This document shows positions 6,064 through 39,243 of a stretch of 64,000 bases of DNA, one piece after another. Origin of the DNA: Nitrososphaerales archaeon. GTDB lineage: Archaea > Thermoproteota > Nitrososphaeria > Nitrososphaerales > UBA213. Both the position numbers and the translations under genes were made by a program. The stretch spans positions 32,001-96,000 of the forward strand of contig CBDAOC010000016.1 in the NCBI GenBank assembly GCA_965197925.1, in the 5' to 3' direction. The notes under the pieces are model-generated. The model did no database searches, was not told the origin of the DNA, and saw only the letters and a program-made list of their open reading frames with translations. The stretch's first letter is position 1. Each line of letters starts with the position of its first letter.

Positions 6064-6072
6064 TGGTATACT
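6064..6072 (+). promoter_or_regulatory. extended -10 element (TGGTATACT) upstream of the tRNA array
   Basis: Matches TGnTAnnnT; 8 nt before tRNA-Tyr. Confidence 0.55.
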
Positions 6073-6080
6073 ATACAAAT

Positions 6081-6167
6081 GAGAGGGTCAGATAGCGGCA
6101 ATTCTAGTGGGCTGTAACCCCACCGACCGAGAGGTCTACGTTGGTTCGAGTCCAACTCCTTTCACCA
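6081..6167 (+). tRNA. tRNA-Tyr(GTA)
   Basis: GTGGG-CTGTAAC-CCCAC anticodon arm, long variable arm, TTCGAGT loop, ACCA. Confidence 0.9.
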
Positions 6168-6168
6168 T

Positions 6169-6242
6169 GGGCTAGTAGTCGAACAGAAAGACGCCGGGCG
6201 TGGAGTCCGGAGAAGGTAGTGCAATTCTATCCTAACCCACCA
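6169..6242 (+). tRNA. atypical tRNA-like RNA (anticodon TGG)
   Basis: Cloverleaf with CCGGG-CGTGGAG-TCCGG arm (G33), TGCAATT T-loop, ACCA. Confidence 0.6.
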
Positions 6243-6243
6243 C

Positions 6244-6278
6244 GGGCAAGAGACAGGGAAACCTTCTCTTGCCCACCA
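6244..6278 (+). ncRNA. ACCA-ended minihelix 1
   Basis: GGGCAAGAGA-C-AGG-GAAA-CCT-TCTCTTGCCC-ACCA. Confidence 0.65.
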
Positions 6279-6282
6279 ATCA

Positions 6283-6360
6283 TACCGGATAAGACTCAAA
6301 ATTAGAGCTATGAACCTGATACGTTCGTGCGTACTAGTTGAAATACTAGTTCCGGTGCCA
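6283..6360 (+). tRNA. atypical tRNA-like RNA (anticodon GAT), copy A
   Basis: ACCGGA/TCCGGT acceptor, extended TATGAAC-CTGATAC-GTTCGTG arm, TGAAAT T-loop, GCCA end. Confidence 0.6.
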
Positions 6361-6361
6361 T

Positions 6362-6395
6362 GGGAGAGTTCGGTTAACTCTGAGTTCTCCCACCA
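6362..6395 (+). ncRNA. ACCA-ended minihelix 2
   Basis: 12-bp stem GGGAGAGTTCGG/CTGAGTTCTCCC, loop TTAACT, then ACCA. Confidence 0.65.
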
Positions 6396-6400
6396 TTTAT

Positions 6401-6479
6401 GTGAGGTAAGTCTCAACATTAGAGCTATGAACCTGATACGTTCATGTGTGAGAGGTGAAAGTCCTCTACCCTCACCCCA
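6401..6479 (+). tRNA. atypical tRNA-like RNA (anticodon GAT), copy B
   Basis: GTGAGG/CCTCAC acceptor; shares ATTAGAGCTATGAACCTGATACGTTC with copy A; AGAGG-TGAAAGT-CCTCT; CCCA end. Confidence 0.6.
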
Positions 6480-6633
6480 TTTACTGACAGAACCCTATAC
6501 GCCTCTTCATCATGCGCACCAAATAGGGTCATATCGTACCTAAGTATTGTGCACAAATATTTAGGTGACACAAAAACCCTGTCCTGGCCTCTGAGTATTC
6601 GGAGACCAGGACATTAATTATACCCACTATAAG

Positions 6634-7936: not shown

Positions 7937-7981
7937 AATGTAGAACACGTGGCATATGTAACAAATGCTACAGGAAAGAAC

Positions 7982-8878
7982 ATGGCATCTCATGCACAAA
8001 AGAAAGAACTTAATTTAGGCGTAGGCCTGAGATATCCGGTCTTCGTGGGGTCAGGAGTAGTTTTATTTACTAGAGATATAACTTCAACTGACCCCGAGTT
8101 TCAAGTAATCCTACACGCCACAGCAACTGCTACACAGATGGCAGGCCCAAAAATACTCAGCAAAGAACCACCCAAAGCATCAGTAGGATACGACAAGAAA
8201 ACAAATAGAGTTATAACCTACTACAGTTATCCACAGGCGTGTATAACAACAGAAGAATGTATAGACATAGTAAACAGAATCAAAACACTACCGTATCCAG
8301 AACATATGTTAGACAGAACCAAACAACGAAATATTATTCTGAACTATGACTTCAATAACACATTAATAGATGATAAATGTTTAGTTCAACTACTTAACGC
8401 ACCTCACTTATTCTATGCAATAGAACTAACATGCAATAAAGTACCAGATAACTTAATAGATGTAAACACAAAAATACGCAAAATAAAAAAGTACCTACCC
8501 ACTACCAAAGTATGGTTAAAATTACCGCATCCAACAGACGTACAAGACACAACATATCTAACACAATTAACAGCACCAGATGCAATCGTACTAGGACAAG
8601 GACGCCCGGCCGTTAACGAAAATATAGAGACATTCAATCCTACAAAGCCCACCTTGGAAGCGGGAACACACTTATACCAGAGTACCTGTGCAACAGTAAT
8701 CTCTTGTCGAGAAAACATGCAAGTACCAATGATCGTAGGTGGCGGAATCCATACAGACGCACAAGTTATGGAACTATTAAAATACGGAGCATCAGGAGTA
8801 CAAGTAACTAGTGCTATATGTAAAAATTGGATGAACACTATATCTTTATACAAGAAACTACGCAAATCCTACCGATAA
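7982..8878 (+). CDS. divergent dihydroorotate dehydrogenase-like flavoprotein
   Basis: PVFVGSG, IELTC, VWLKLP, IVGGGIHT, GASGVQVTSA. Confidence 0.6.
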   Translation: MASHAQKKELNLGVGLRYPVFVGSGVVLFTRDITSTDPEFQVILHATATATQMAGPKILSKEPPKASVGYDKKTNRVITYYSYPQACITTEECIDIVNRIKTLPYPEHMLDRTKQRNIILNYDFNNTLIDDKCLVQLLNAPHLFYAIELTCNKVPDNLIDVNTKIRKIKKYLPTTKVWLKLPHPTDVQDTTYLTQLTAPDAIVLGQGRPAVNENIETFNPTKPTLEAGTHLYQSTCATVISCRENMQVPMIVGGGIHTDAQVMELLKYGASGVQVTSAICKNWMNTISLYKKLRKSYR

Positions 8879-10334: not shown

Positions 10335-13187
10335 ATGATGAACCAGTTCAATGCACCCGCATCGAATTACCCCGTCAAAGAATCGCTTGGCCCTTTTAAC
10401 GAAGCACAGCTTAAGCAACAATTCATTGACAACACCTCCCTCTCCTCAATCATTGAACCAACGGGCATCTACTCCTCCAGTGGATACGTTGAGTGGAAAA
10501 GATCTCCACTCAACTCCCTAACCTTTCTCGTAGGAAACGAATTTGGATTCAATGACTCAGCAATTGTCCATTGGGAACTAGGAACCGACGAACGTGGTAA
10601 CATCTCCATTGATCACACGATGGAAATGATCGCCCGATTTAATCGTACCTTCGACTATAAAAGCTACGCATTCCGTTGGCCCAACAGTGGCATAACTGAA
10701 TGTTTATTCCGAGGCAACACCCACTCTCTTAGAGAGCCATTACACGAAGCTTTGGGACTTAAATTTGACTACCGTAAAAAGGTTGGCAAAGGTAAGAAAA
10801 GGATGCACATCTTTGGACTATCTCAAGGTGCGTTCCTAAACAACCAACCAAGTAGTGGAAGAGAAGTACATCTCAGTCCCGATTGCACGCTCACATGGGC
10901 ACTCGAACCCGCAGCCCTCAATGATACCAACGACGGCGGTGGTTCTTGCACCAAGAGTGGACTGAAGAAGATACTGGACAACAGCAACATTCCTTACACG
11001 AATGAAAGCTTCAAGAAAATAGACAGCGTACAACTAGTAATTGTTACTGCTGAACATATCATCAAAGGAATCTTTGTCGTAGTAGATGACAATGTCATCC
11101 CAAACAACATTGATCTACTGGTACCTGAACCTTCGCTAGTATATGAACTAGTTAGTGACAAGTATACTATGGGAAAGGTCAACCTAATCAACCGTAAGAA
11201 GAACAAGAACTGGGTAACGATGGAACCACTCCAAGTAGTACCTAACTTCCTGAACTTCACCGATCACAATGAAGTTGCACATGAAATACATCGGGCATCC
11301 TTACAAGCTGAGACCGATATATACAATGAAATCATAGCTGGAAAATCTCTGTTGGAGCATTATGATCAAATCGTAGACGACAGAACTGTACTTCCATACG
11401 CCTTCGAACTAGATGAACTCCACAATCTGGAAGACATGGAGTTATCCGAAGAGATGAGAGCATTTGTAAAAGCCTCTGCACAGGCTGGCAACAACTCACC
11501 ATATGCCAACACCGTGTTGATGGAACAAACAATGTCTGGCACCTATAGGCACATCCAGAAGCTGATCAAGCATTGGAAAGGTTTGCCTGGAATTATTATC
11601 AGTGGTGGTAGACACTACATAACGTACGCACCGCACGCCGGTGTAGCAGACCCACCTTTGGGCTATCTAGGAATCATATACTGGGACGACAAATGTGACA
11701 CATGTGGAAGCAAAACGTGTCACAACCACTTTGAGAGAGATATACGCCGTATATCAATCAACCCAGAAGACTGCGATGCCCACACTCGTGACCTACTAGA
11801 CGGATTTGACATGGATGATTCGTGCTTCTGGGCACTACTACGCAGGCCCGACGGTCAGCTAGTAGCTTGGATTGGACGCAACCCTATGTCTCCCGACAGA
11901 GGACTCATACTTACTATCATGCAACAGGATGAAAACATCCTAATGCGCAGAGGATACAAAGCCCTAACCCAGACAGGTGAATGGAAAATACCTGATCTCT
12001 GGAAGATAGAAGAAACCTTAAAACTTGGTGAATTGAAAGATATTCCCGAGTGGACTTGGGACGACAAAGCCGACCTCGAAACTTGCTTCACTTTGTCCAG
12101 TAAAACAGGTGGCCTCGGCCAACTGGCACTGTACACTAGTGCATTTCAATACACCGGACAGTGGGATGTAAATAGACACCACATTCTTAACTCCAATGTA
12201 GTAGATGCACAAGTAAATGCTGATGCAGACGTAGAATGGACTGTTCAAGTAATGCACAAAGACTTCATAACCACTTTCGTAGAGGAAAAGAAGTTAATGA
12301 GCAAGTATATTGCTACCCGTATGGAACGCATGTTTGCGGCCACCGGTATAAGCAAGGATGCCTTCGTCTACGGCAACTCCCCTCGCTTGGATGCAATGGC
12401 TGCCAGTTTACAGATTACAGACACTGATCTGTATAATCGTGACGAAATCCGTAAACTGCTATCCAATGGCACAGCCTCACGATTGACCATGCAATTGAAC
12501 GAGAACATAGTCACGATAGTTCTCACGCTTGCGAAACAAGTGCGCCACCTATGGACTACACACTTCGCACTCATCAATGAGTACGATGCAGCCCTTGCAT
12601 GTGGTGACATTGACGAAGAACTGCACGATACCTTCGTCACCAACTCAAGAAAAGAAGTAGCCAGAGTAGTAAAGGTACTAATACAGACTACTTACACCCG
12701 TGCCCTCGAACTCCCTGACTATAATGTTGGTGAATTCGCCGCAGCTTGGATGCAGATTCAAGCTAGTAAAGCAACTCGCTTCCGTGTCTTCGAAGACCAG
12801 AAGTTTGCTAGGCCTATATCTGCAACCCCACTAATCAATCTACCAGTAGAAGAGATCTTAACCTGCTTTTACAGCACGTACACTCAACCTACTTGGATCA
12901 CTAGGATGGTCGGAAACGATTTCCTTATCCCAGGTGGTGTATATAGTGTAGAACAAGATGAAACAGGTATCATATACCTACTCGATGGTGACAAAAACAT
13001 CGCTGGAACTTTGCTTCCAGAATCCGATCCCATAGTTGGTCAAGTAGTACAATACGTAGCCAACATACCTCGTCATCACAACTGGACTGATGGTAGCACT
13101 GAAAACTGGGACGCCAGAGAGAACTGTGGTGTATTTAACATAAACCACACCATCTGGCAAGAAAAGAATACAGAAATAGCGGGGTAA
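10335..13187 (+). CDS. 950-aa protein, candidate divergent single-chain two-barrel (YonO/RdRP-like) RNA polymerase
   Basis: DGGG, Q...IKG, LDGFDMDD and GRNP motifs; AAGGAG RBS. The ORF is secure; the function is inferred. Confidence 0.5.
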   Translation: MMNQFNAPASNYPVKESLGPFNEAQLKQQFIDNTSLSSIIEPTGIYSSSGYVEWKRSPLNSLTFLVGNEFGFNDSAIVHWELGTDERGNISIDHTMEMIARFNRTFDYKSYAFRWPNSGITECLFRGNTHSLREPLHEALGLKFDYRKKVGKGKKRMHIFGLSQGAFLNNQPSSGREVHLSPDCTLTWALEPAALNDTNDGGGSCTKSGLKKILDNSNIPYTNESFKKIDSVQLVIVTAEHIIKGIFVVVDDNVIPNNIDLLVPEPSLVYELVSDKYTMGKVNLINRKKNKNWVTMEPLQVVPNFLNFTDHNEVAHEIHRASLQAETDIYNEIIAGKSLLEHYDQIVDDRTVLPYAFELDELHNLEDMELSEEMRAFVKASAQAGNNSPYANTVLMEQTMSGTYRHIQKLIKHWKGLPGIIISGGRHYITYAPHAGVADPPLGYLGIIYWDDKCDTCGSKTCHNHFERDIRRISINPEDCDAHTRDLLDGFDMDDSCFWALLRRPDGQLVAWIGRNPMSPDRGLILTIMQQDENILMRRGYKALTQTGEWKIPDLWKIEETLKLGELKDIPEWTWDDKADLETCFTLSSKTGGLGQLALYTSAFQYTGQWDVNRHHILNSNVVDAQVNADADVEWTVQVMHKDFITTFVEEKKLMSKYIATRMERMFAATGISKDAFVYGNSPRLDAMAASLQITDTDLYNRDEIRKLLSNGTASRLTMQLNENIVTIVLTLAKQVRHLWTTHFALINEYDAALACGDIDEELHDTFVTNSRKEVARVVKVLIQTTYTRALELPDYNVGEFAAAWMQIQASKATRFRVFEDQKFARPISATPLINLPVEEILTCFYSTYTQPTWITRMVGNDFLIPGGVYSVEQDETGIIYLLDGDKNIAGTLLPESDPIVGQVVQYVANIPRHHNWTDGSTENWDARENCGVFNINHTIWQEKNTEIAG

Positions 13188-20514: not shown

Positions 20515-21063
20515 CCTATCTCCAAAAGAAATACGGAACAAATGGTATATTGCATTAGAAAGTGGATTTTTTATACCAACTGAACACCATCTACGTGTAC
20601 TTGTACTAGGAACCAAATACGAATACAGACACTCCGCAATAGGAGTACTCTGCGCCGTAAGTAAATTAGGTGAATTCTTACCAGAACCTACAGAACACAC
20701 AAACGGTAGACAGAAAGACAGTATAAAGCACATATTTCACCTATTCAACGGCAGAGATTTAAAAGCAGCTAACACAAAGTATAAAGAATACGAATTCAGA
20801 AATGCCCCTGCAAGTTTATTACGAGACTTAGGAATAGCTAAATACAGATGGGAAATAAACCATGTATCATCACAACATATATTTGCATATAGTAACATAC
20901 CTATAGAAATAAAAAATGAAATAGATTTGATCCAAACATATGGAAGATACAACTTCTCTATAGACAATATAATGACCAACACAGCTATACCACAGAGCAG
21001 AAAATTTCCTATACTAGGACAACTACTAAGAACAGTAGAAAAGAAATTTGCTGATTAATAAAC

Positions 21064-21537
21064 TTGCCTCAAAGAAAGAGAAGACGACCTTACAAGAAAC
21101 GCAATACAGTAGAGAAACAATTTCAAGAAGAAGTTATAGCCATAGGTAGAAATTACCAATGGCTAATGTATAGCGTACCAGATAGCCGATTAGCAACCGC
21201 TAAAGGCTACATAGATTTAACAATGCTGCATCCAGAGAAACAACTACTCATGGGTGCAGAGTTAAAAGCTCCTAAAGGTAAACTAACCAAAGAGCAAATA
21301 GTATGGATGACAGTATTATCACAATACTATCCAGTACACTTATGGAAACCGGAACACCTAGACACTATACAATATATGCTAAGACATGGTATAGTAACAG
21401 GTGATACACAGTATCCACCAAGCCGGTGTGGCGAAACGGCAGACGCGCTAGCCTTAGAAGCTAGTCTCGAAAGGGGTGTAGGTTCGACTCCTATCACCGG
21501 CACCAATTTTTCCCCCAAATTATTCTTCCTATCGTAA
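21064..21537 (+). CDS. VRR-NUC-like nuclease
   Basis: EKQFQ, GYIDL, AELKAPKGKLTKEQ; reading frame runs through tRNA-Leu. Confidence 0.75.
   Translation: MPQRKRRRPYKKRNTVEKQFQEEVIAIGRNYQWLMYSVPDSRLATAKGYIDLTMLHPEKQLLMGAELKAPKGKLTKEQIVWMTVLSQYYPVHLWKPEHLDTIQYMLRHGIVTGDTQYPPSRCGETADALALEASLERGVGSTPITGTNFSPKLFFLS
21422..21505 (+). tRNA. tRNA-Leu(TAG)
   Basis: CTAGC-CTTAGAA-GCTAG, long variable arm, ACCA. Confidence 0.93.
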
Positions 21538-21583
21538 ACTACGGTGGTCAATATAGGATATACAATAAACTTAGTAAAGAAAC

Positions 21584-22078
21584 ATGAAAGCACTAAAACT
21601 TATAAGAAACATAGGAATGTCAGTTGTAGGCGTAGCGGCAATTGCAGGTATCATAACCTTCAGTGCTGTACACAGTAACAATACTGTAAACGCACACGGC
21701 CCTGATCCTACTACTCCTCCAGTAATGGCCGGAGATCTAGCTCCTGACACACCAGTAGTACCAGTTGCACCTAAAGTAATGCCTGCCCCCGCCGCAGAAC
21801 TTACTATGGAACAGCAACTAGAAAATGACATGCGCGAAATATTTAATTCCAAGGGATTTAATAACAATTCTGTAATGTGTGAATATTCAGAAGGTAACGC
21901 ATCAGCTTCAATGGCTGCAATGTTACTAGCAACTGGTGAATCTTCATATAACGGACTAGACAATACAGCAGATCGCTGGACAGATGCTATGTCCGCAGAA
22001 CTATCATCACACGCTGAAGTAGCTATATGTGCAGGCTCAGCCAGCAAGCATAGCGTTTCAGGCATGTCTTTTAATTAA
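21584..22078 (+). CDS. secreted or membrane-anchored hypothetical protein
   Basis: N-terminal hydrophobic segment followed by a Pro-rich linker. Confidence 0.6.
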   Translation: MKALKLIRNIGMSVVGVAAIAGIITFSAVHSNNTVNAHGPDPTTPPVMAGDLAPDTPVVPVAPKVMPAPAAELTMEQQLENDMREIFNSKGFNNNSVMCEYSEGNASASMAAMLLATGESSYNGLDNTADRWTDAMSAELSSHAEVAICAGSASKHSVSGMSFN

Positions 22079-22262: not shown

Positions 22263-22336
22263 GGGGGCTTGGTATAATGAGATTACTTTGCTCTTGCACA
22301 GCAACAATATGGGTTTGACTCCCATAGCCTCCACCA
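22263..22336 (+). tRNA. tRNA-Ala(TGC)
   Basis: G3:U70, CTTGCAC loop, ACCA. Confidence 0.88.
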
Positions 22337-22631: not shown

Positions 22632-22718
22632 CAATGAGTCGAAGATTTTGGGTTATTTACTTAATCACCAACTCTTGAATTTGATACATTCAACCCATTA
22701 TCAATCCTTACTCATTGT
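22631..22718 (+). ncRNA. Y-RNA-like gene Y6
   Basis: ACAATGAGT-CGAAG...GGGTTATT...CTT-ACTCATTGT; starts at the CCA of tRNA-Pro. Confidence 0.7.
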
Positions 22719-23109: not shown

Positions 23110-23252
23110 TTACGAGTCGAAGATAATTGGTTAATTAAGGAATATTGTAAGAGTGTCTACGGGCATTGACAATTACTCTATACAAATGGTGTTGCACCTA
23201 TCACCTGTATAGTGACATTATAGGGCTTCTCAATTTCACAACTTACTCGCAA
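23110..23252 (+). ncRNA. Y-RNA-like gene Y7
   Basis: TTACGAGT-CGAAG...GGTTAATT...ACTT-ACTCGCAA; directly after tRNA-Ile. Confidence 0.65.
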
Positions 23253-23566: not shown

Positions 23567-23692
23567 TGTAGAGTCGATAGATATAGATTACTGCTTTCAA
23601 CAGAGAGGAGTGGGTTCGAGTCCCACTGCATCGTAAGATGTACAGTGTACAGGATGCACGCTTAAACCCTATGTCACCACTTACTCTACATG
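23565..23692 (+). ncRNA. YrlA-type Y RNA Y8 with tRNA-like domain
   Basis: CATGTAGAGT-CGA...CTT-ACTCTACATG; inside are a T arm GTGGG-TTCGAGT-CCCAC, a loop-closed acceptor TGCATC-GTAA-GATGTA and a D-like hairpin. Confidence 0.8.
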
Positions 23693-24937: not shown

Positions 24938-25075
24938 AACTAGAGTCGACAGATTTAGGTTATTCGACTTGTAATCGGGCGGCCGTGGGTTCGAATCCCA
25001 CCCCTAGCTCCATATGCTAGGGTAGCTCAGCGGTAGAGCACCAAAACTACCCTATTTCACCAACTTACTCTAGTT
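24938..25075 (+). ncRNA. YrlA-type Y RNA Y9 containing a circularly permuted tRNA-Thr-like domain
   Basis: AACTAGAGT-CGAC...CTT-ACTCTAGTT; internal order is anticodon arm (TGT), T arm, CCCTAGC-TCCATAT-GCTAGGG, D arm. Confidence 0.85.
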
Positions 25076-25588: not shown

Positions 25589-25720
25589 ATCTAGAGCCGA
25601 CGTTACTACATTATTGGATAAAAGTTCACATCGGTACATAAATGTATGTATCCACCTGAACAGAGAGGCTTCGAAACCTCCGCTCGAAAGAGTTTATGTA
25701 CAACAATACTAGTTCTAGAT
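25589..25720 (+). ncRNA. Y-RNA-like gene Y11 with T-arm remnant
   Basis: ATCTAGAGC-CGAC...CATTATT...GAGG-CTTCGAAA-CCTC...CTA-GTTCTAGAT. Confidence 0.7.
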
Positions 25721-32224: not shown

Positions 32225-33889
32225 ATGTCATATTTGACACAAGCATTCAACACACCAGCTCCCCAGCGTGAGCCAGAGATGGGGCGTGAACAAGACCAAG
32301 TAAAGAACAATGCAGGCGGATACGTATTCCCTGTAACCCCAGAAATACAGCTAGATCGCTTCCTAATCCTAGGTAGCGAAGGTGGTAGTTATTACGCTAG
32401 CGAAAGAGCCTTAACCCTAGAGAACGCTAAGAACGCTCTCAACATGGTAAAAGGTGAAAAAGGTATACAAGTAGTCAAGAGAGTTGTAGAACTCGCTCAT
32501 GGCCGTGCCCCAAAGATAGGCCCACCCCTATTCGTATTGGCTATGGCTGCTTCCTATGGCAACACTGACACCAGAACTGTAGCATTCGAAGTTCTTCCAC
32601 AGGTAGCTCGCACAGCAAGCCATCTGTTCCAGTTCATCGAATATGTAGACAGCATGCGTGGTTGGGGCAGAGCCTTGAAGAATGGTATCAACAACTGGTA
32701 CACATCCAAGACTCCAGAAAACCTAGCCTACCAGGTTGTAAAGTACCGCACCAGAAACTCTTGGAGCCACCGAGACGTACTACGAAAGACCCACCCAATG
32801 AGCTATGATCACAACAACCTATTCGCCTACTTGACCAACAAGGCATGGACCGAAGAGGATTCGTTGAGCATCGTAAAGGCATATGAAGCAGCGAAAACCA
32901 TGGATAGCAAGGAACTTGTTGAACACATCACCAAGCATAGCCTAACCTGGGAAATGCTTCCTACTGAATCCCTACGCGACATGGAGGTATGGCGTGCCAT
33001 GTTACCCGACATGCCTGCCACTGCACTACTTAGAAACTTAGGACGTTTGACCCGCCTAGAACTGCTCAAGCCCCTAAGCGATGAAGCTAGCCAAGTCGCC
33101 GCGAAGTTCTCTAGCGCAGAGTGGGTAAAATACGGTCGTCTGCACCCCTTCAACATCCTTTTGGCGTATTACACATACATCAGAGGACAAGGATACCAGA
33201 GTCGTAACAGTGGCAGAGGCAGAAGTGCCTTCAGTGACCCTTACGGCACTCACAAGCCAGACTGGGAACCAGTACAGTCTGTAGTAGATGCACTTGAAAC
33301 TGCATTCAACCATTCTTTCCAAAATGTAGCACCTACAGGACAAAAGATCTATGTAGGACTGGACGTGTCCGGCTCTATGAGAGCAGAGATCATGGGAACT
33401 CCTATCTCTGCACGTGAAGGTGCCGCCGCACTGGCTTTGTACGTTGCAAAGACAGAGCCTAACTTCCACGTCGCTGCATTCTCAGCTGGTACTCAGTTTA
33501 GTACAAGAAGATTTGTTTCCAGAGGTACTGCAATGGTACCAATGGACTTCTCTTCAAAGGACTCTCTCCAGGACATACTCAGAAAGACAGAAAGACTACC
33601 ATTCGGTGGTACAGACTGTGCTCTTCCAATGATGGATGCTCTTGAAAAGAAGATCGAAGTAGATTGCTTCCTAGTACTAACTGACAGTGAGACATGGGCA
33701 GGCCCCATCCACCCATTCAGAGCCCTAGAAAAGTATCGTGCCGAAATGAATCGTCCAGCTAAGCTGGTGGTTGTAGGCATGACCTCAAACGAGTTTAGTA
33801 TTGCTGATCCTAGTGATGCAGGTATGCTAGACATAGTTGGATTCGACGCTGCAATGCCTAGGCTGATCAGTGATTTCATAACCAACTAA
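32225..33889 (+). CDS. rsr: Ro60 / TROVE-domain RNA-binding protein (Rsr)
   Basis: NNAGGYVF, RFLILGSEGGSYY, KYRTRNSWSHRDVLR, vWA motifs DVSGSM, GGTDC, TDSETW, GMLDIVGFD. Confidence 0.96.
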   Translation: MSYLTQAFNTPAPQREPEMGREQDQVKNNAGGYVFPVTPEIQLDRFLILGSEGGSYYASERALTLENAKNALNMVKGEKGIQVVKRVVELAHGRAPKIGPPLFVLAMAASYGNTDTRTVAFEVLPQVARTASHLFQFIEYVDSMRGWGRALKNGINNWYTSKTPENLAYQVVKYRTRNSWSHRDVLRKTHPMSYDHNNLFAYLTNKAWTEEDSLSIVKAYEAAKTMDSKELVEHITKHSLTWEMLPTESLRDMEVWRAMLPDMPATALLRNLGRLTRLELLKPLSDEASQVAAKFSSAEWVKYGRLHPFNILLAYYTYIRGQGYQSRNSGRGRSAFSDPYGTHKPDWEPVQSVVDALETAFNHSFQNVAPTGQKIYVGLDVSGSMRAEIMGTPISAREGAAALALYVAKTEPNFHVAAFSAGTQFSTRRFVSRGTAMVPMDFSSKDSLQDILRKTERLPFGGTDCALPMMDALEKKIEVDCFLVLTDSETWAGPIHPFRALEKYRAEMNRPAKLVVVGMTSNEFSIADPSDAGMLDIVGFDAAMPRLISDFITN

Positions 33890-35788: not shown

Positions 35789-36418
35789 ATGCCCTACGAA
35801 CTACAAATTAGATCAACGAATATACTTCCAAACCTAACAGACTCATTAAGAAATAAAATGTCTCCTTACTTAAATTCCACGGTTAGAGTAAGCCAATATT
35901 ACAGAGGAGATAAAATACCCGCTAACGAAGGTATAAAGTACCCCTACTTCCTATCAGAAAACTTATGTCTAGTTTTACCTAAATATATATCTGCACAAAA
36001 AAGTACAATGATATGCACCGCACTAGCTGAAAATTATAGAAACAAAATACTACAATACTTTCTAGACTTATGTGAACAAAACTTAAGACCAAAAGATATA
36101 AACGTAGGAAAACTAGAGGAAATACAAAAAAATATACAATACAAAACAAATCAGAATAGAATATATGCCTTAACTCATACTCCTGCCCTAATACATCCTA
36201 GTATTATATCGAGCCAGTTACCAGATGAAGTTACCTCCAAAAGTCACATATTCACTACAAACAGCCTTAGAAATACCGCTCCATTAATAATATCATATAC
36301 ACCAACACTATATGAAGAGACAGAGGAACCTCATATGTTAGCTGTAAAATCTACATTAACATTTGAAGTAGTCACAGACTTTACTGATACAGTATACATA
36401 AGAGCACCAATAAACTAA
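35789..36418 (+). CDS. hypothetical protein
   Basis: 209-aa ORF coupled to polA. Confidence 0.6.
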   Translation: MPYELQIRSTNILPNLTDSLRNKMSPYLNSTVRVSQYYRGDKIPANEGIKYPYFLSENLCLVLPKYISAQKSTMICTALAENYRNKILQYFLDLCEQNLRPKDINVGKLEEIQKNIQYKTNQNRIYALTHTPALIHPSIISSQLPDEVTSKSHIFTTNSLRNTAPLIISYTPTLYEETEEPHMLAVKSTLTFEVVTDFTDTVYIRAPIN

Positions 36419-37326
36419 TGCCACCTACCTCACTAAACCTAGGCGTAATGATCGCCGCTGGAATCCTAGGAACAGATGGACTAGGAACCGGATTATCACA
36501 TACTATAAAAAATGAACTCGATAATTTCAAGTACATCGTAACTAAATCACTAACGAATTATCCAACCAGCGGAACCCCACAACCCAATCATACAGGTAGA
36601 AACCGATATCAACTAGAAGGAGTTACATTAAATAATGTAAACCTCCGTAATATGGGATCTTGGATAAGCACTGATAGAATAAATTCACTTGCAAAACAAC
36701 TAAATTCAGCAAGACTAGTTGCAAGTATAGCCGTACAGAGTCCGACTGATATAACGAGATACGGATTCACCACATTAATGAGCACACTACTAAACCATGC
36801 AGCCGTAGACACAATAGAAATTAATCTAGGCTGCCATCTACTGTATAACGCCTTTACAATTCCGAACAACCATGCAGAACGTATGGCTGAACACTTACGT
36901 ATATTTTTAAAAGAGACAATAACTAAACGAGAAACTATAAAACCCATATGGTTGAAACTGCCGCCAGACCCACACTTTACTCGTAGCATAGTAGAAGATG
37001 CAGAACTATTAGACCTATGCTCGTTAGTAATATCCAACAGTTACGCAGGAAAGATATACGACAACAACATCGAGCATAAAACTAATGTACTTCAAAGTGG
37101 AATCGGAGTAAGTGTGAACGCTATGAAATACATGAACTACAAATTAATAGAAGATATGCGTAAACAGATAAAAGATAGTATAAACATTATAGGATGTGGT
37201 GGAATTTCAGCTACACAAGATGTTCAAGACTACATGACTGCTGGAGTAAATGGTGTACAAATAGGTAGTCTATTCTTACATCAACCTGAAACAGCAATAG
37301 CAATAGCACGAGCATTCACACAATAA
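36418..37326 (+). CDS. dihydroorotate dehydrogenase-like flavoprotein
   Basis: IAAG, VTKS, EINLGC, WLKLPP, ISNS, IIGCGGI, AGVNGVQIGS. Confidence 0.75.
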   Translation: MPPTSLNLGVMIAAGILGTDGLGTGLSHTIKNELDNFKYIVTKSLTNYPTSGTPQPNHTGRNRYQLEGVTLNNVNLRNMGSWISTDRINSLAKQLNSARLVASIAVQSPTDITRYGFTTLMSTLLNHAAVDTIEINLGCHLLYNAFTIPNNHAERMAEHLRIFLKETITKRETIKPIWLKLPPDPHFTRSIVEDAELLDLCSLVISNSYAGKIYDNNIEHKTNVLQSGIGVSVNAMKYMNYKLIEDMRKQIKDSINIIGCGGISATQDVQDYMTAGVNGVQIGSLFLHQPETAIAIARAFTQ

Positions 37327-39166: not shown

Positions 39167-39243
39167 GCCTGGGTTGCTTAAAGGTAAAGCTTAAAGTACC
39201 TCACGAAAACTTGTTGCGGGTTCGAGTCCTGTCCCAGGCACCA
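39167..39243 (+). tRNA. aberrant tRNA with distorted anticodon arm (possibly Val-CAC or a pseudo-tRNA)
   Basis: Perfect acceptor GCCTGGG/CCCAGGC, T arm and ACCA; anticodon arm AAGT-ACCTCACGAAA-ACTT. Confidence 0.6.

Follow-up and report, generated by a model that had tools for sequence, protein, structure and literature searches.

The stretch of DNA analysed here, referred to as the window, comprises 64,000 nucleotides (positions 32001-96000) of a 150,385-bp contig (CBDAOC010000016.1, from an assembly filed under a Nitrososphaerales archaeon) that is the genome of a tailed phage, with terminase, portal, head protease and tail genes present. On its forward strand, immediately 3' of a bacterial-type tRNA-Tyr gene, lie five further units: a non-canonical tRNA with a UGG anticodon (U1), two free-standing hairpins of the acceptor minihelix type (MH1 and MH2) and two tRNA-like RNAs with the anticodon GAU (GAT1 and GAT2, together the GAU units). 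An earlier note on this DNA, made from the letters alone, had described five closely spaced CCA-ended units after tRNA-Tyr, and all five are indeed present. The features of the locus, in window coordinates and all on the + strand, are as follows.

6064..6072, +, extended -10 promoter element TGGTATACT, a consensus match 8 nt 5' of tRNA-Tyr
6081..6167, +, tRNA-Tyr(GTA) of bacterial type with G1-C72, A73 and a long variable arm, first unit of the operon (ARAGORN; Rfam 41.4 bits)
6169..6242, +, U1, non-canonical UGG tRNA of 74 nt (Rfam tRNA 40.8 bits; partial probable orthologue in sequencing run X3)
6244..6278, +, MH1, minihelix of 35 nt (fold -23.1 kcal/mol, z -6.3)
6284..6360, +, GAT1, tRNA-like RNA of 77 nt (no Rfam tRNA match)
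6362..6395, +, MH2, minihelix of 34 nt (fold -17.2 kcal/mol, z -4.2)
6401..6479, +, GAT2, paralogue of GAT1, 79 nt (common D/anticodon core, different yet paired acceptor and T stems, C73-CCA)
6493..6529, +, weak abiF-RNA-like hairpin, 13 nt 3' of GAT2, below the family cut-off
6538..6613, +, two more hairpins (6538-6566 and 6580-6613; folded stretches z -2.9 and -5.9), probable 3' end of the RNA operon

From tRNA-Tyr onward the spacers measure 1, 1, 5, 1 and 5 nt and a CCA is encoded at the end of every unit, the layout being tRNA-Tyr, U1 and then, twice over, a module of minihelix, 5 nt and GAU unit. Taken alone, the extended -10 consensus is not above chance (2 found, 1.9 expected); a similar TG-TATACT stands 5' of tRNA-Tyr in a read contig whose upstream end differs. 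At 6538-6613 no U-tract terminator was predicted, and a terminator call on MH2 was rejected, as it is the minihelix itself plus an AU spacer. A 77-amino acid open reading frame (ORF) that overlaps the array has no Pfam match.

Structure of the array units

MH1 forms 13 base pairs (10+3) with one bulged C, closed by a GAAA tetraloop and ending in A73-CCA, and its acceptor strands read GGGCAAG/CTTGCCC. MH2 has 12 base pairs, a 6-nt loop (UUAACU) and likewise A73-CCA, with acceptor strands GGGAGAG/TTCTCCC. Of the two, MH2 is the 12-bp hairpin with ACCA that had been described before, whereas MH1, with its bulge and thirteenth pair, is not a plain 12-bp helix.

The three cloverleaves lack the canonical combination of a 7-bp acceptor, a 5-bp anticodon stem, U33, G18G19 and a TTC T loop. 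U1 has the anticodon loop CGTGGAG (G33, A37), the T loop TGCAATT and a D loop without GG (A18 G19), and its acceptor consists of G1-C72, G2-C71, G3-C70 and a C4.A69 mismatch, followed by A73; the G33 and the unusual T loop had both been pointed out in the earlier note. GAT1 has a 6-bp acceptor, a 6-bp T stem with a UGAAA T loop, a 6-bp anticodon stem with the loop CUGAUAC, and G73-CCA, and in both GAU units the 6-bp acceptor, the extended anticodon stem and the TGAAA T loop are seen as first described, together with A18 U19. U1 scores above the gathering threshold of the Rfam tRNA family (RF00005, 29 bits), whereas an Rfam scan at E<=10 gave no tRNA match for GAT1, GAT2 or MH2, and another Rfam scan left MH1 unmatched.

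The elbow is altered throughout. In our numbering, U1 has A18-G19 facing G55-C56 and the GAU units have A18-U19 facing G55-A56, and thus the G18G19/UUC elbow is replaced in all three cloverleaves, with 18-55 now A-G and 19-56 still complementary. G55 is absent from all 31 other tRNA calls of the phage, and units that end in CCA and have a TG[AC]AA T loop number three on the + strand of the contig, all of them within the array (the - strand has two weak matches). The GAU units keep, by our by-eye reading, C13-G22 with G46 and A15 with U48. Elsewhere in the phage, tRNA-Ala(TGC) (window 22263-22336) and tRNA-Gly(TCC) (contig 96671-96744) combine G18-A19 with U55-U56, which is another compensated elbow (A19-U56).

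Selection on shape

Between GAT1 and GAT2, 39 of 43 positions are identical from the acceptor-D link to the variable loop, whereas the acceptor and T stems agree at just 6 of 24 (Fisher p 6e-8, with segments set by hand). A shared core had been noticed earlier and put at 26 nt; the sharing stands, and the exact run is 25 nt within the 43-nt core. Of the 12 base pairs in the top half, eight are changed on both sides, three are the same and one is broken, leaving 11 intact, and the UGAAA T loop is identical in the two units. A further case comes from a contig of run X3 (depth 2), in which a diverged tRNA-Tyr differs at four positions that make up two compensated pairs of the variable arm. The 30 letters after its CCA read, by our interpretation, as one spacer base and then a U1-like start with a different acceptor strand beginning in GG; the D stem is GTAT/ATAC in place of GTCG/AGAC in U1, and the D loop is AATAGAA in place of AACAGAA. 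This is a probable 5' part of a covarying U1 orthologue.

The arrangement is also not one that chance would readily supply. A chain of five abutting units, each a stem with NCCA, was found in 0 of 2000 dinucleotide shuffles, the best of which reached three. A strict minihelix rule (length 33-37 nt, the first 9 pairs unbroken, 12 or more pairs in all, energy no higher than -14 kcal) picks out two hairpins on the + strand of the 150-kb contig, MH1 and MH2, as against none on the - strand and none in 10 shuffles; in 5.5 Mb of the remaining assembly, both strands counted, it picks out two. A looser rule has a high background (83 matches in 2.3 Mb), and it is because of this that position and strength, not the hairpin alone, make the case for the minihelices.

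Taken together, the units are almost certainly genetically encoded RNAs under structural selection and not decayed duplicates. The pattern suggests that the top halves are free in sequence and fixed in shape, as for processing and stability, that the bottom half of the GAU units is fixed in sequence, as for a reader, and that translation signals have been weakened.

Similar loci in other DNA

The earlier note had proposed a search of other phages for conserved minihelix units. Similar hairpins after odd units did emerge; a homologue of the GAU units did not. In a viral collection, a pattern of tRNA-CCA followed by GGG...CCCACCA gave three loci, of which one (L052) is real: a 34-nt minihelix with a GNRA loop between two tRNAs with distorted anticodon loops, 5' of a weakly PTH2-like ORF. 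The whole of this locus (L052:375-650, - strand) looks like a small operon of another virus, with two odd tRNAs and the minihelix followed by the PTH2-like ORF (Pfam E 0.011).

A second pattern gave at least 119 loci with seven good hairpins, and among the matches listed L147 is the sole one in a same-strand tRNA array. Its hairpin, of 35 nt, has a 7-bp acceptor identical to that of MH1 (the pattern itself dictates four of the seven pairs), comes after a unit that has a TGAAAT loop and no anticodon, and lies 1 nt 5' of a tRNA-Val. That preceding unit (L147:337-387, - strand) is 51 nt long, with an acceptor-like stem, a T arm with a TTGAAAT loop and a GCCA end directly before the minihelix. Across the 16-kb array of L147 a hairpin scan gave three matches per strand, one of which alone adjoins a tRNA. 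Four further loci were dropped as chance, two with their tRNAs on the opposite strand (L130, L076) and two with no nearby tRNA (L051, L053). Covariation across the four hairpins that were kept was not counted as evidence, these hairpins having been selected for pairing. Judged by L052 and L147, the putative minihelix class recurs in unrelated phages.

Neither an exact 23-mer of the GAU unit nor a strict pattern for it had a match in viral contigs. With looser patterns the metagenome, genome and viral collections yielded 10, 6 and 12 loci, respectively, which were treated as chance because none of the 28 has a 6-bp anticodon stem or a tRNA call. BLAST against cultured phages returned matches at the level of tRNA-Tyr or of chance only.

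Charging identity and decoding capacity

We compared the units with the identity sets for bacterial tRNA-Ile and tRNA-Pro and archaeal tRNA-Pro in Table 1 of PMC9976931. The bacterial Ile set (A73, C4-G69, U12-A23, C29-G41, GAU, A37, A38) is incomplete in the GAU units, which have GAU, A37 and U12-A23, carry G (GAT1) or C (GAT2) at position 73 and have unrelated acceptors. U1 departs from the bacterial Pro set (A73, G72, G35, G36, G37) in having C72 and A37, and fits the archaeal one (A73, G1-C72, G2-C71, G3-C70, G35, G36). MH1 has A73 and C4-G69, the Ile acceptor identity; MH2 has A73 alone, without C4-G69. The predicted charging identities of the mimics are thus incoherent.

Pair 51-63 is A/U in all three odd cloverleaves as against 6 of 30 canonical tRNAs (p 0.015). 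An A/U pair at 51-63 and a TGC T loop mark the staphylococcal non-proteogenic tRNA-Gly, which binds EF-Tu poorly (PMC7826273). Of such marks (a TGC or TGT T loop and weak EF-Tu pairs) U1 has the TGC loop as well as the weak pair, and appears to resemble a non-proteogenic tRNA on two marks. Canonical tRNAs for Ile(GAT) and Pro(TGG, C1-G72) stand at window 23035 and 22558, so the array units are not needed for decoding, as the earlier note had thought probable. Very probably, they do not decode.

The phage and its host

The contig carries 28 tRNAs by ARAGORN defaults (28 of the 45 default calls of the assembly) and encodes a bacterial-type TyrRS, DNA polymerase A (Pol A), a beta clamp, NAMPT, macro, NADAR, a PNKP phosphatase and Ro60. 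The other contigs of the assembly contain tRNAs with introns, which point to an archaeal bin. Because these contigs are archaeal-like and the tRNAs and genes of the phage are bacterial-type (among them TyrRS, Pol A and the beta clamp), we rejected an archaeal host and regard the phage contig as probably mis-binned. The whole contig looks like a complete 150-kb genome of a bacterial phage within an apparently archaeal bin. In an RNA run labelled sponge metagenome, three contigs match the array region without differences. A 230-amino acid protein encoded upstream has 10 relatives at 58-89% identity; searches for related phages with RNase H and terminase returned distant viruses only.

The TyrRS (contig 20835-21956) is near full length, and the tRNA-Tyr of the phage has its own promoter. 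The idea of an anticodon-blind, shortened TyrRS was rejected, as the phage protein aligns to residues 44-406 of a 410-amino acid TyrRS. In the long ORFs of the phage the Ile codons number 892 ATA, 705 ATT and 329 ATC; the Ile tRNAs at window 23035 (GAT) and 24381 (TAT) both have U38, not A38, and ATA is the commonest Ile codon. At window 39167-39243 lies a tRNA with a CAC anticodon, the loop CTCACGA (G37) and a short D stem, which ARAGORN defaults miss and Rfam scores at 38.6 bits. Two dihydroorotate-dehydrogenase-like TIM-barrel genes are present (window 7949-8878 and 36418-37326), and window 10335-13187 encodes a 950-amino acid protein without a Pfam or PHROG match, containing a DGFDMDD stretch that we take to be reminiscent of the catalytic motif of double-psi-barrel RNA polymerases.

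A proposed function as decoys

We propose that the array forms part of a dedicated phage RNA operon, which would run from the extended -10 promoter through tRNA-Tyr, U1 and the two modules of minihelix and GAU mimic to the abiF-like hairpin. Host RNase P would cut the 5' end of each unit and trimming to the encoded CCA would yield RNAs of 74, 35, 77, 34 and 79 nt; the released mimics would be kept off translation and would serve as decoys for tRNA-attacking enzymes of the host, or as competitive ligands of these enzymes. The minihelices would expose the acceptor/CCA face alone, which is the face read by toxSAS, MenT and GNAT-type toxins, and the GAU mimics would offer an unvarying D/anticodon face, carried by an L-shaped body whose elbow is rebuilt.

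The array RNAs are probably released in vivo as discrete species. U at -1 is found in five of six units and RCCA ends likewise in five of six, which suits RNase P, and hairpin substrates with RCCA are cleaved by this enzyme (PMC11143913). MH1 and MH2 have the form of its minihelix substrates (a helix of about 12 bp, single-stranded RCCA and a 5' leader), their leaders being 1 nt plus the upstream CCA. The toxSAS enzyme FaRel2 modifies a minihelix efficiently, reading CCA and pairs 1-5 (bioRxiv 2024.07.05.602228). The minihelix geometry recognised in the earlier note therefore matches model substrates of both RNase P and FaRel2. It is also consistent with counter-defence that phage T5 counters retron Eco7 by overexpressing tRNA-Tyr under a strong promoter (PMC11555353), and that the present phage has NAMPT, macro, NADAR, Ro60 and PNKP-type genes together with the weak abiF-like hairpin.

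This hairpin scores 30.8 bits against a gathering threshold of 37 for RF03085 (E 0.0024 in 1 kb); it is the sole match reported in the 2.9-Mb assembly (E 0.0016, with 150 of 1205 candidates scored) and its fold is no stronger than that of shuffles (z -0.66). The motif is present as a single copy, not repeated, and PF07751, the Abi_2/AbiF family, has no match in the assembly. An abiF-like hairpin without an Abi_2 gene is a possible antitoxin mimic, and a copy without its toxin would fit mimicry, not membership of the family. The abiF RNA of C. difficile acts in trans to neutralise its toxin (bioRxiv 2025.04.15.648962).

Several points weigh against a decoy role. U at -1 is common among the tRNA calls of the phage generally (15 of 32). 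MH1 and MH2 have G2-C71 and not the C2-G71 needed by FaRel2, and the loop of the GAU units has C38 where the bacterial Ile identity set has A38. The lowest-energy fold of GAT1 (-20.0) is not the cloverleaf (-18.6), a gap of 1.4 kcal, whereas that of GAT2 is the cloverleaf. Published phage tRNA counter-defence is translational rescue, which mutation of the anticodon abolished, and the word 'decoy' occurs 0 times in the accessible text of that study (PMC11555353). The abiF-like match is single and below cut-off, and the C. difficile antitoxin requires two motifs (bioRxiv 2025.04.15.648962). A contig of RNA run X5 (depth about 4) extends without a break from tRNA-Tyr past GAT1 into MH2 and includes promoter sequence; such read contigs cannot reveal RNA ends and this one may be DNA. 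Between 6085 and 6369 it is identical to the array, and its upstream end is a different one, with TGATATACT, which may have been joined on within tRNA-Tyr during assembly. Searches of the various collections brought up no homologue of the GAU units. We hold the decoy reading only tentatively; that the non-decoding mimics serve as decoys for tRNA-targeting defences is nevertheless a real possibility, and the one we prefer.

A bolder version, which we consider speculative and unlikely, is that the tRNA has been taken apart into faces. The free minihelices would present the acceptor/CCA end and cloverleaves of a new 6/6 class, with their A18.G55/U19-A56 elbow, an anticodon arm invisible to translation; with tRNA-Tyr and the abiF-antitoxin look-alike they would make up, on one transcript, an RNA-only counter-defence cassette against several tRNA-targeting toxins.

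Alternative explanations

The main rival to the decoy reading, absent from the earlier note, is that the minihelices are processing marks. An RNase P cut at the 5' end of the hairpin would free the odd RNA upstream of it 1-2 nt past its CCA, and the hairpin would be a by-product, with a further job for the cloverleaf mimics alone. In four of four cases (U1, GAT1, L052 and L147) a non-canonical unit ends in CCA 1-2 nt before the hairpin begins, although this is partly by construction, since both collection patterns required an upstream CCA. G+1, 12-13 bp and RCCA are features of RNase P model substrates (PMC11143913), and the hairpin of L147 has an encoded CCA in a phage in which just one of 33 tRNA calls by our own script has one. 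Nevertheless, the next cloverleaf could itself be the cut site, GAT2 has no hairpin after it, and the identical 7-bp acceptor in two unrelated phages (MH1 and L147) exceeds the needs of RNase P. We regard this explanation as unlikely.

Less probable still is that the mimics are permanently uncharged signals or inhibitors, with GAU units that would activate T-box riboswitches for Ile, stimulate or dampen RelA, or bind to IleRS, and so tune the amino-acid supply of the host. The conserved parts of the GAU units are the anticodon arm, U12-A23 and the CCA end, with charging identity varying, and the phage has many Ile codons, as counted above. T-boxes pair with N73, however, and this base differs (G or C) between the two GAU units, in which the elbow is also altered; the idea moreover leaves U1 and the minihelices unexplained.

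Non-ribosomal use, which the earlier note had put forward, would make the units private aminoacyl donors for a transferase, as tRNA-Gly is for FemXAB in staphylococci. One could imagine a two-piece version, with MH1 supplying the Ile acceptor identity and GAT1 the Ile anticodon; the UGC T loop of U1 and the A/U 51-63 pairs match the non-proteogenic signature, U1 carries the archaeal Pro set and the phage encodes a TyrRS. Against this, Pfam and PHROG scans of the contig ORFs, most of which are unassigned, found no recognisable transferase, with the Fem, GNAT, CDPS, MprF and L/F-transferase families all unmatched. MH2 lacks C4-G69, the paralogues keep no single identity, and the TyrRS is near full length and hence not anticodon-blind. 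We judge a donor role to be decidedly improbable.

A role as ligands or cargo of the phage Ro60 (TROVE and vWA domains, window 32225-33889), also raised in the earlier note, is very unlikely. U1 does contain GTCGAA, part of the GNCGAAN0-1G motif, but there it is a D-stem strand, incomplete and without a 3' partner; the minihelices and GAU units have no motif and the array has no bulged Ro60 helix. Five other elements carry the motif together with a 3' partner strand. These Y-RNA-like elements lie between tRNA genes (window 22636-22715, 23114-23250, 23571-23690, 24943-25072 and 25594-25720), each combining a 5' GAG[C/T]CGA motif with a 3' strand that matches it. The one at 24943 matches YrlA (35.3 bits, E 6e-6) and contains a tRNA module that ends in CCA. 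This is the single YrlA match in the assembly (24955-25071), and the array units do not qualify as YrlA, the motif being partial and confined to the D stem of U1.

It is equally hard to see the units as irregular tRNAs that still work in decoding, or as mis-sense tRNAs, in the manner of some allo-tRNAs. The GAU units retain U33, GAU, A37, the core triple and the Levitt pair in our numbering, and 8/4 and 9/3 allo-tRNAs do translate in E. coli (PMC5389517), but the 6-bp acceptors, non-TTC T loops, weak EF-Tu pairs, G33 of U1 and canonical copies elsewhere all count against decoding, and the idea is inapplicable to the minihelices. Neutral decay of duplicated tRNA genes, which the earlier note had set against its own view, is scarcely credible and appears largely refuted already: the module of minihelix and GAU unit is duplicated, the MH2 loop resembles a T loop minus one base and no GAU homologue was found, but eight of 12 GAU pairs are changed on both sides with just one broken, all five CCA ends are intact and the compensated relative of U1 exists in run X3.

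Significance

The array is real and selected, and within reach of the literature searched it is undescribed in print; its function we infer. That literature, with most subscription papers outside its coverage, yielded no description of genome-encoded minihelices or phage tRNA decoys; the 10,006 candidate viral RNAs listed with PMC10690425 could hold such motifs unnamed.

In this operon two minihelices are clearly selected for structure, and unrelated phages carry similar ones. Work on the ancient half of tRNA uses the minihelix as its standard in-vitro model, and if the reading of separated tRNA faces were true, minihelices would have a natural use where we have met them in print solely as a test-tube model. 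The GAU units indicate that a tRNA-shaped RNA can exchange its entire top half and re-code its elbow with the anticodon half staying fixed, which points to a sequence-reading partner other than a synthetase. If the mimics are decoys, phages would possess a second, non-translational route against tRNA-targeting immunity, one missed by tRNA scanners.

Comparison with known systems

The synthetic acceptor/T-arm minihelices (PMC11143913; bioRxiv 2024.07.05.602228) resemble MH1 and MH2 in their 12-13-bp helix, G+1, discriminator with CCA and length of 34-35 nt. They are, however, made in vitro from real tRNAs with the 7-nt T loop kept, whereas MH1 and MH2 are genome-encoded, with a loop of GAAA in the former and of 6 nt in the latter.

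Among published cases the closest is that of the irregular-tRNA polycistrons of Mukai (tRNA0/1/2) and the allo-tRNAs near toxin-antitoxin genes (PMC5389517; also PMC7609411), which are co-transcribed, have an altered acceptor/T partition and in some instances are charged yet unused in translation. Their forms do not match the array: they are 8/4, 9/3 or 7/5, with long variable arms, G-1 or an extra loop (PMC5389517), whereas here the partition is 6/6 in GAT1 and 6/5 plus 2 nt in GAT2, with 4-nt variable loops, UGAAA T loops and T at -1. The array units are thus not allo-tRNAs, although by eye a bulged 8/4 reading is possible for GAT2, not for GAT1. The word 'minihelix' is absent from the accessible text of that paper and its supplement (PMC5389517).

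Like U1, the staphylococcal non-proteogenic tRNA-Gly has TGC for TTC in its T loop and A/U at 51-63 (PMC7826273). It keeps Gly identity and serves FmhB, FemA and FemB, whereas U1 has a UGG triplet, G33 and A73. With the Y RNAs (YrlA, RF02553; PMC4201824, PMC12135203) the likeness is that of tRNA-mimic RNAs in a Ro60-encoding phage, and the YrlA of M. smegmatis is cut by RNase P and gains CCA. In Y RNAs, however, the Ro60 helix closes the molecule and encloses the tRNA module, whereas the array units are closed by acceptor stems and have no Ro60 helix.

The phage tRNAs that act against retron Eco7, PrrC and PARIS (PMC11555353, PMC11464382) share with this locus a tRNA-Tyr behind its own strong-looking promoter; they replace a lost tRNA in translation, which the array units seem unable to do. 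The array belongs, in our view, with the non-decoding tRNA-like RNAs in phage tRNA operons. The species 1 and 2 RNAs of T4 (rnaC and rnaD) are stable non-tRNA RNAs co-transcribed in a phage tRNA cluster, with a length of 120-140 nt, in contrast to the bare minihelices and 6/6 cloverleaves found here.

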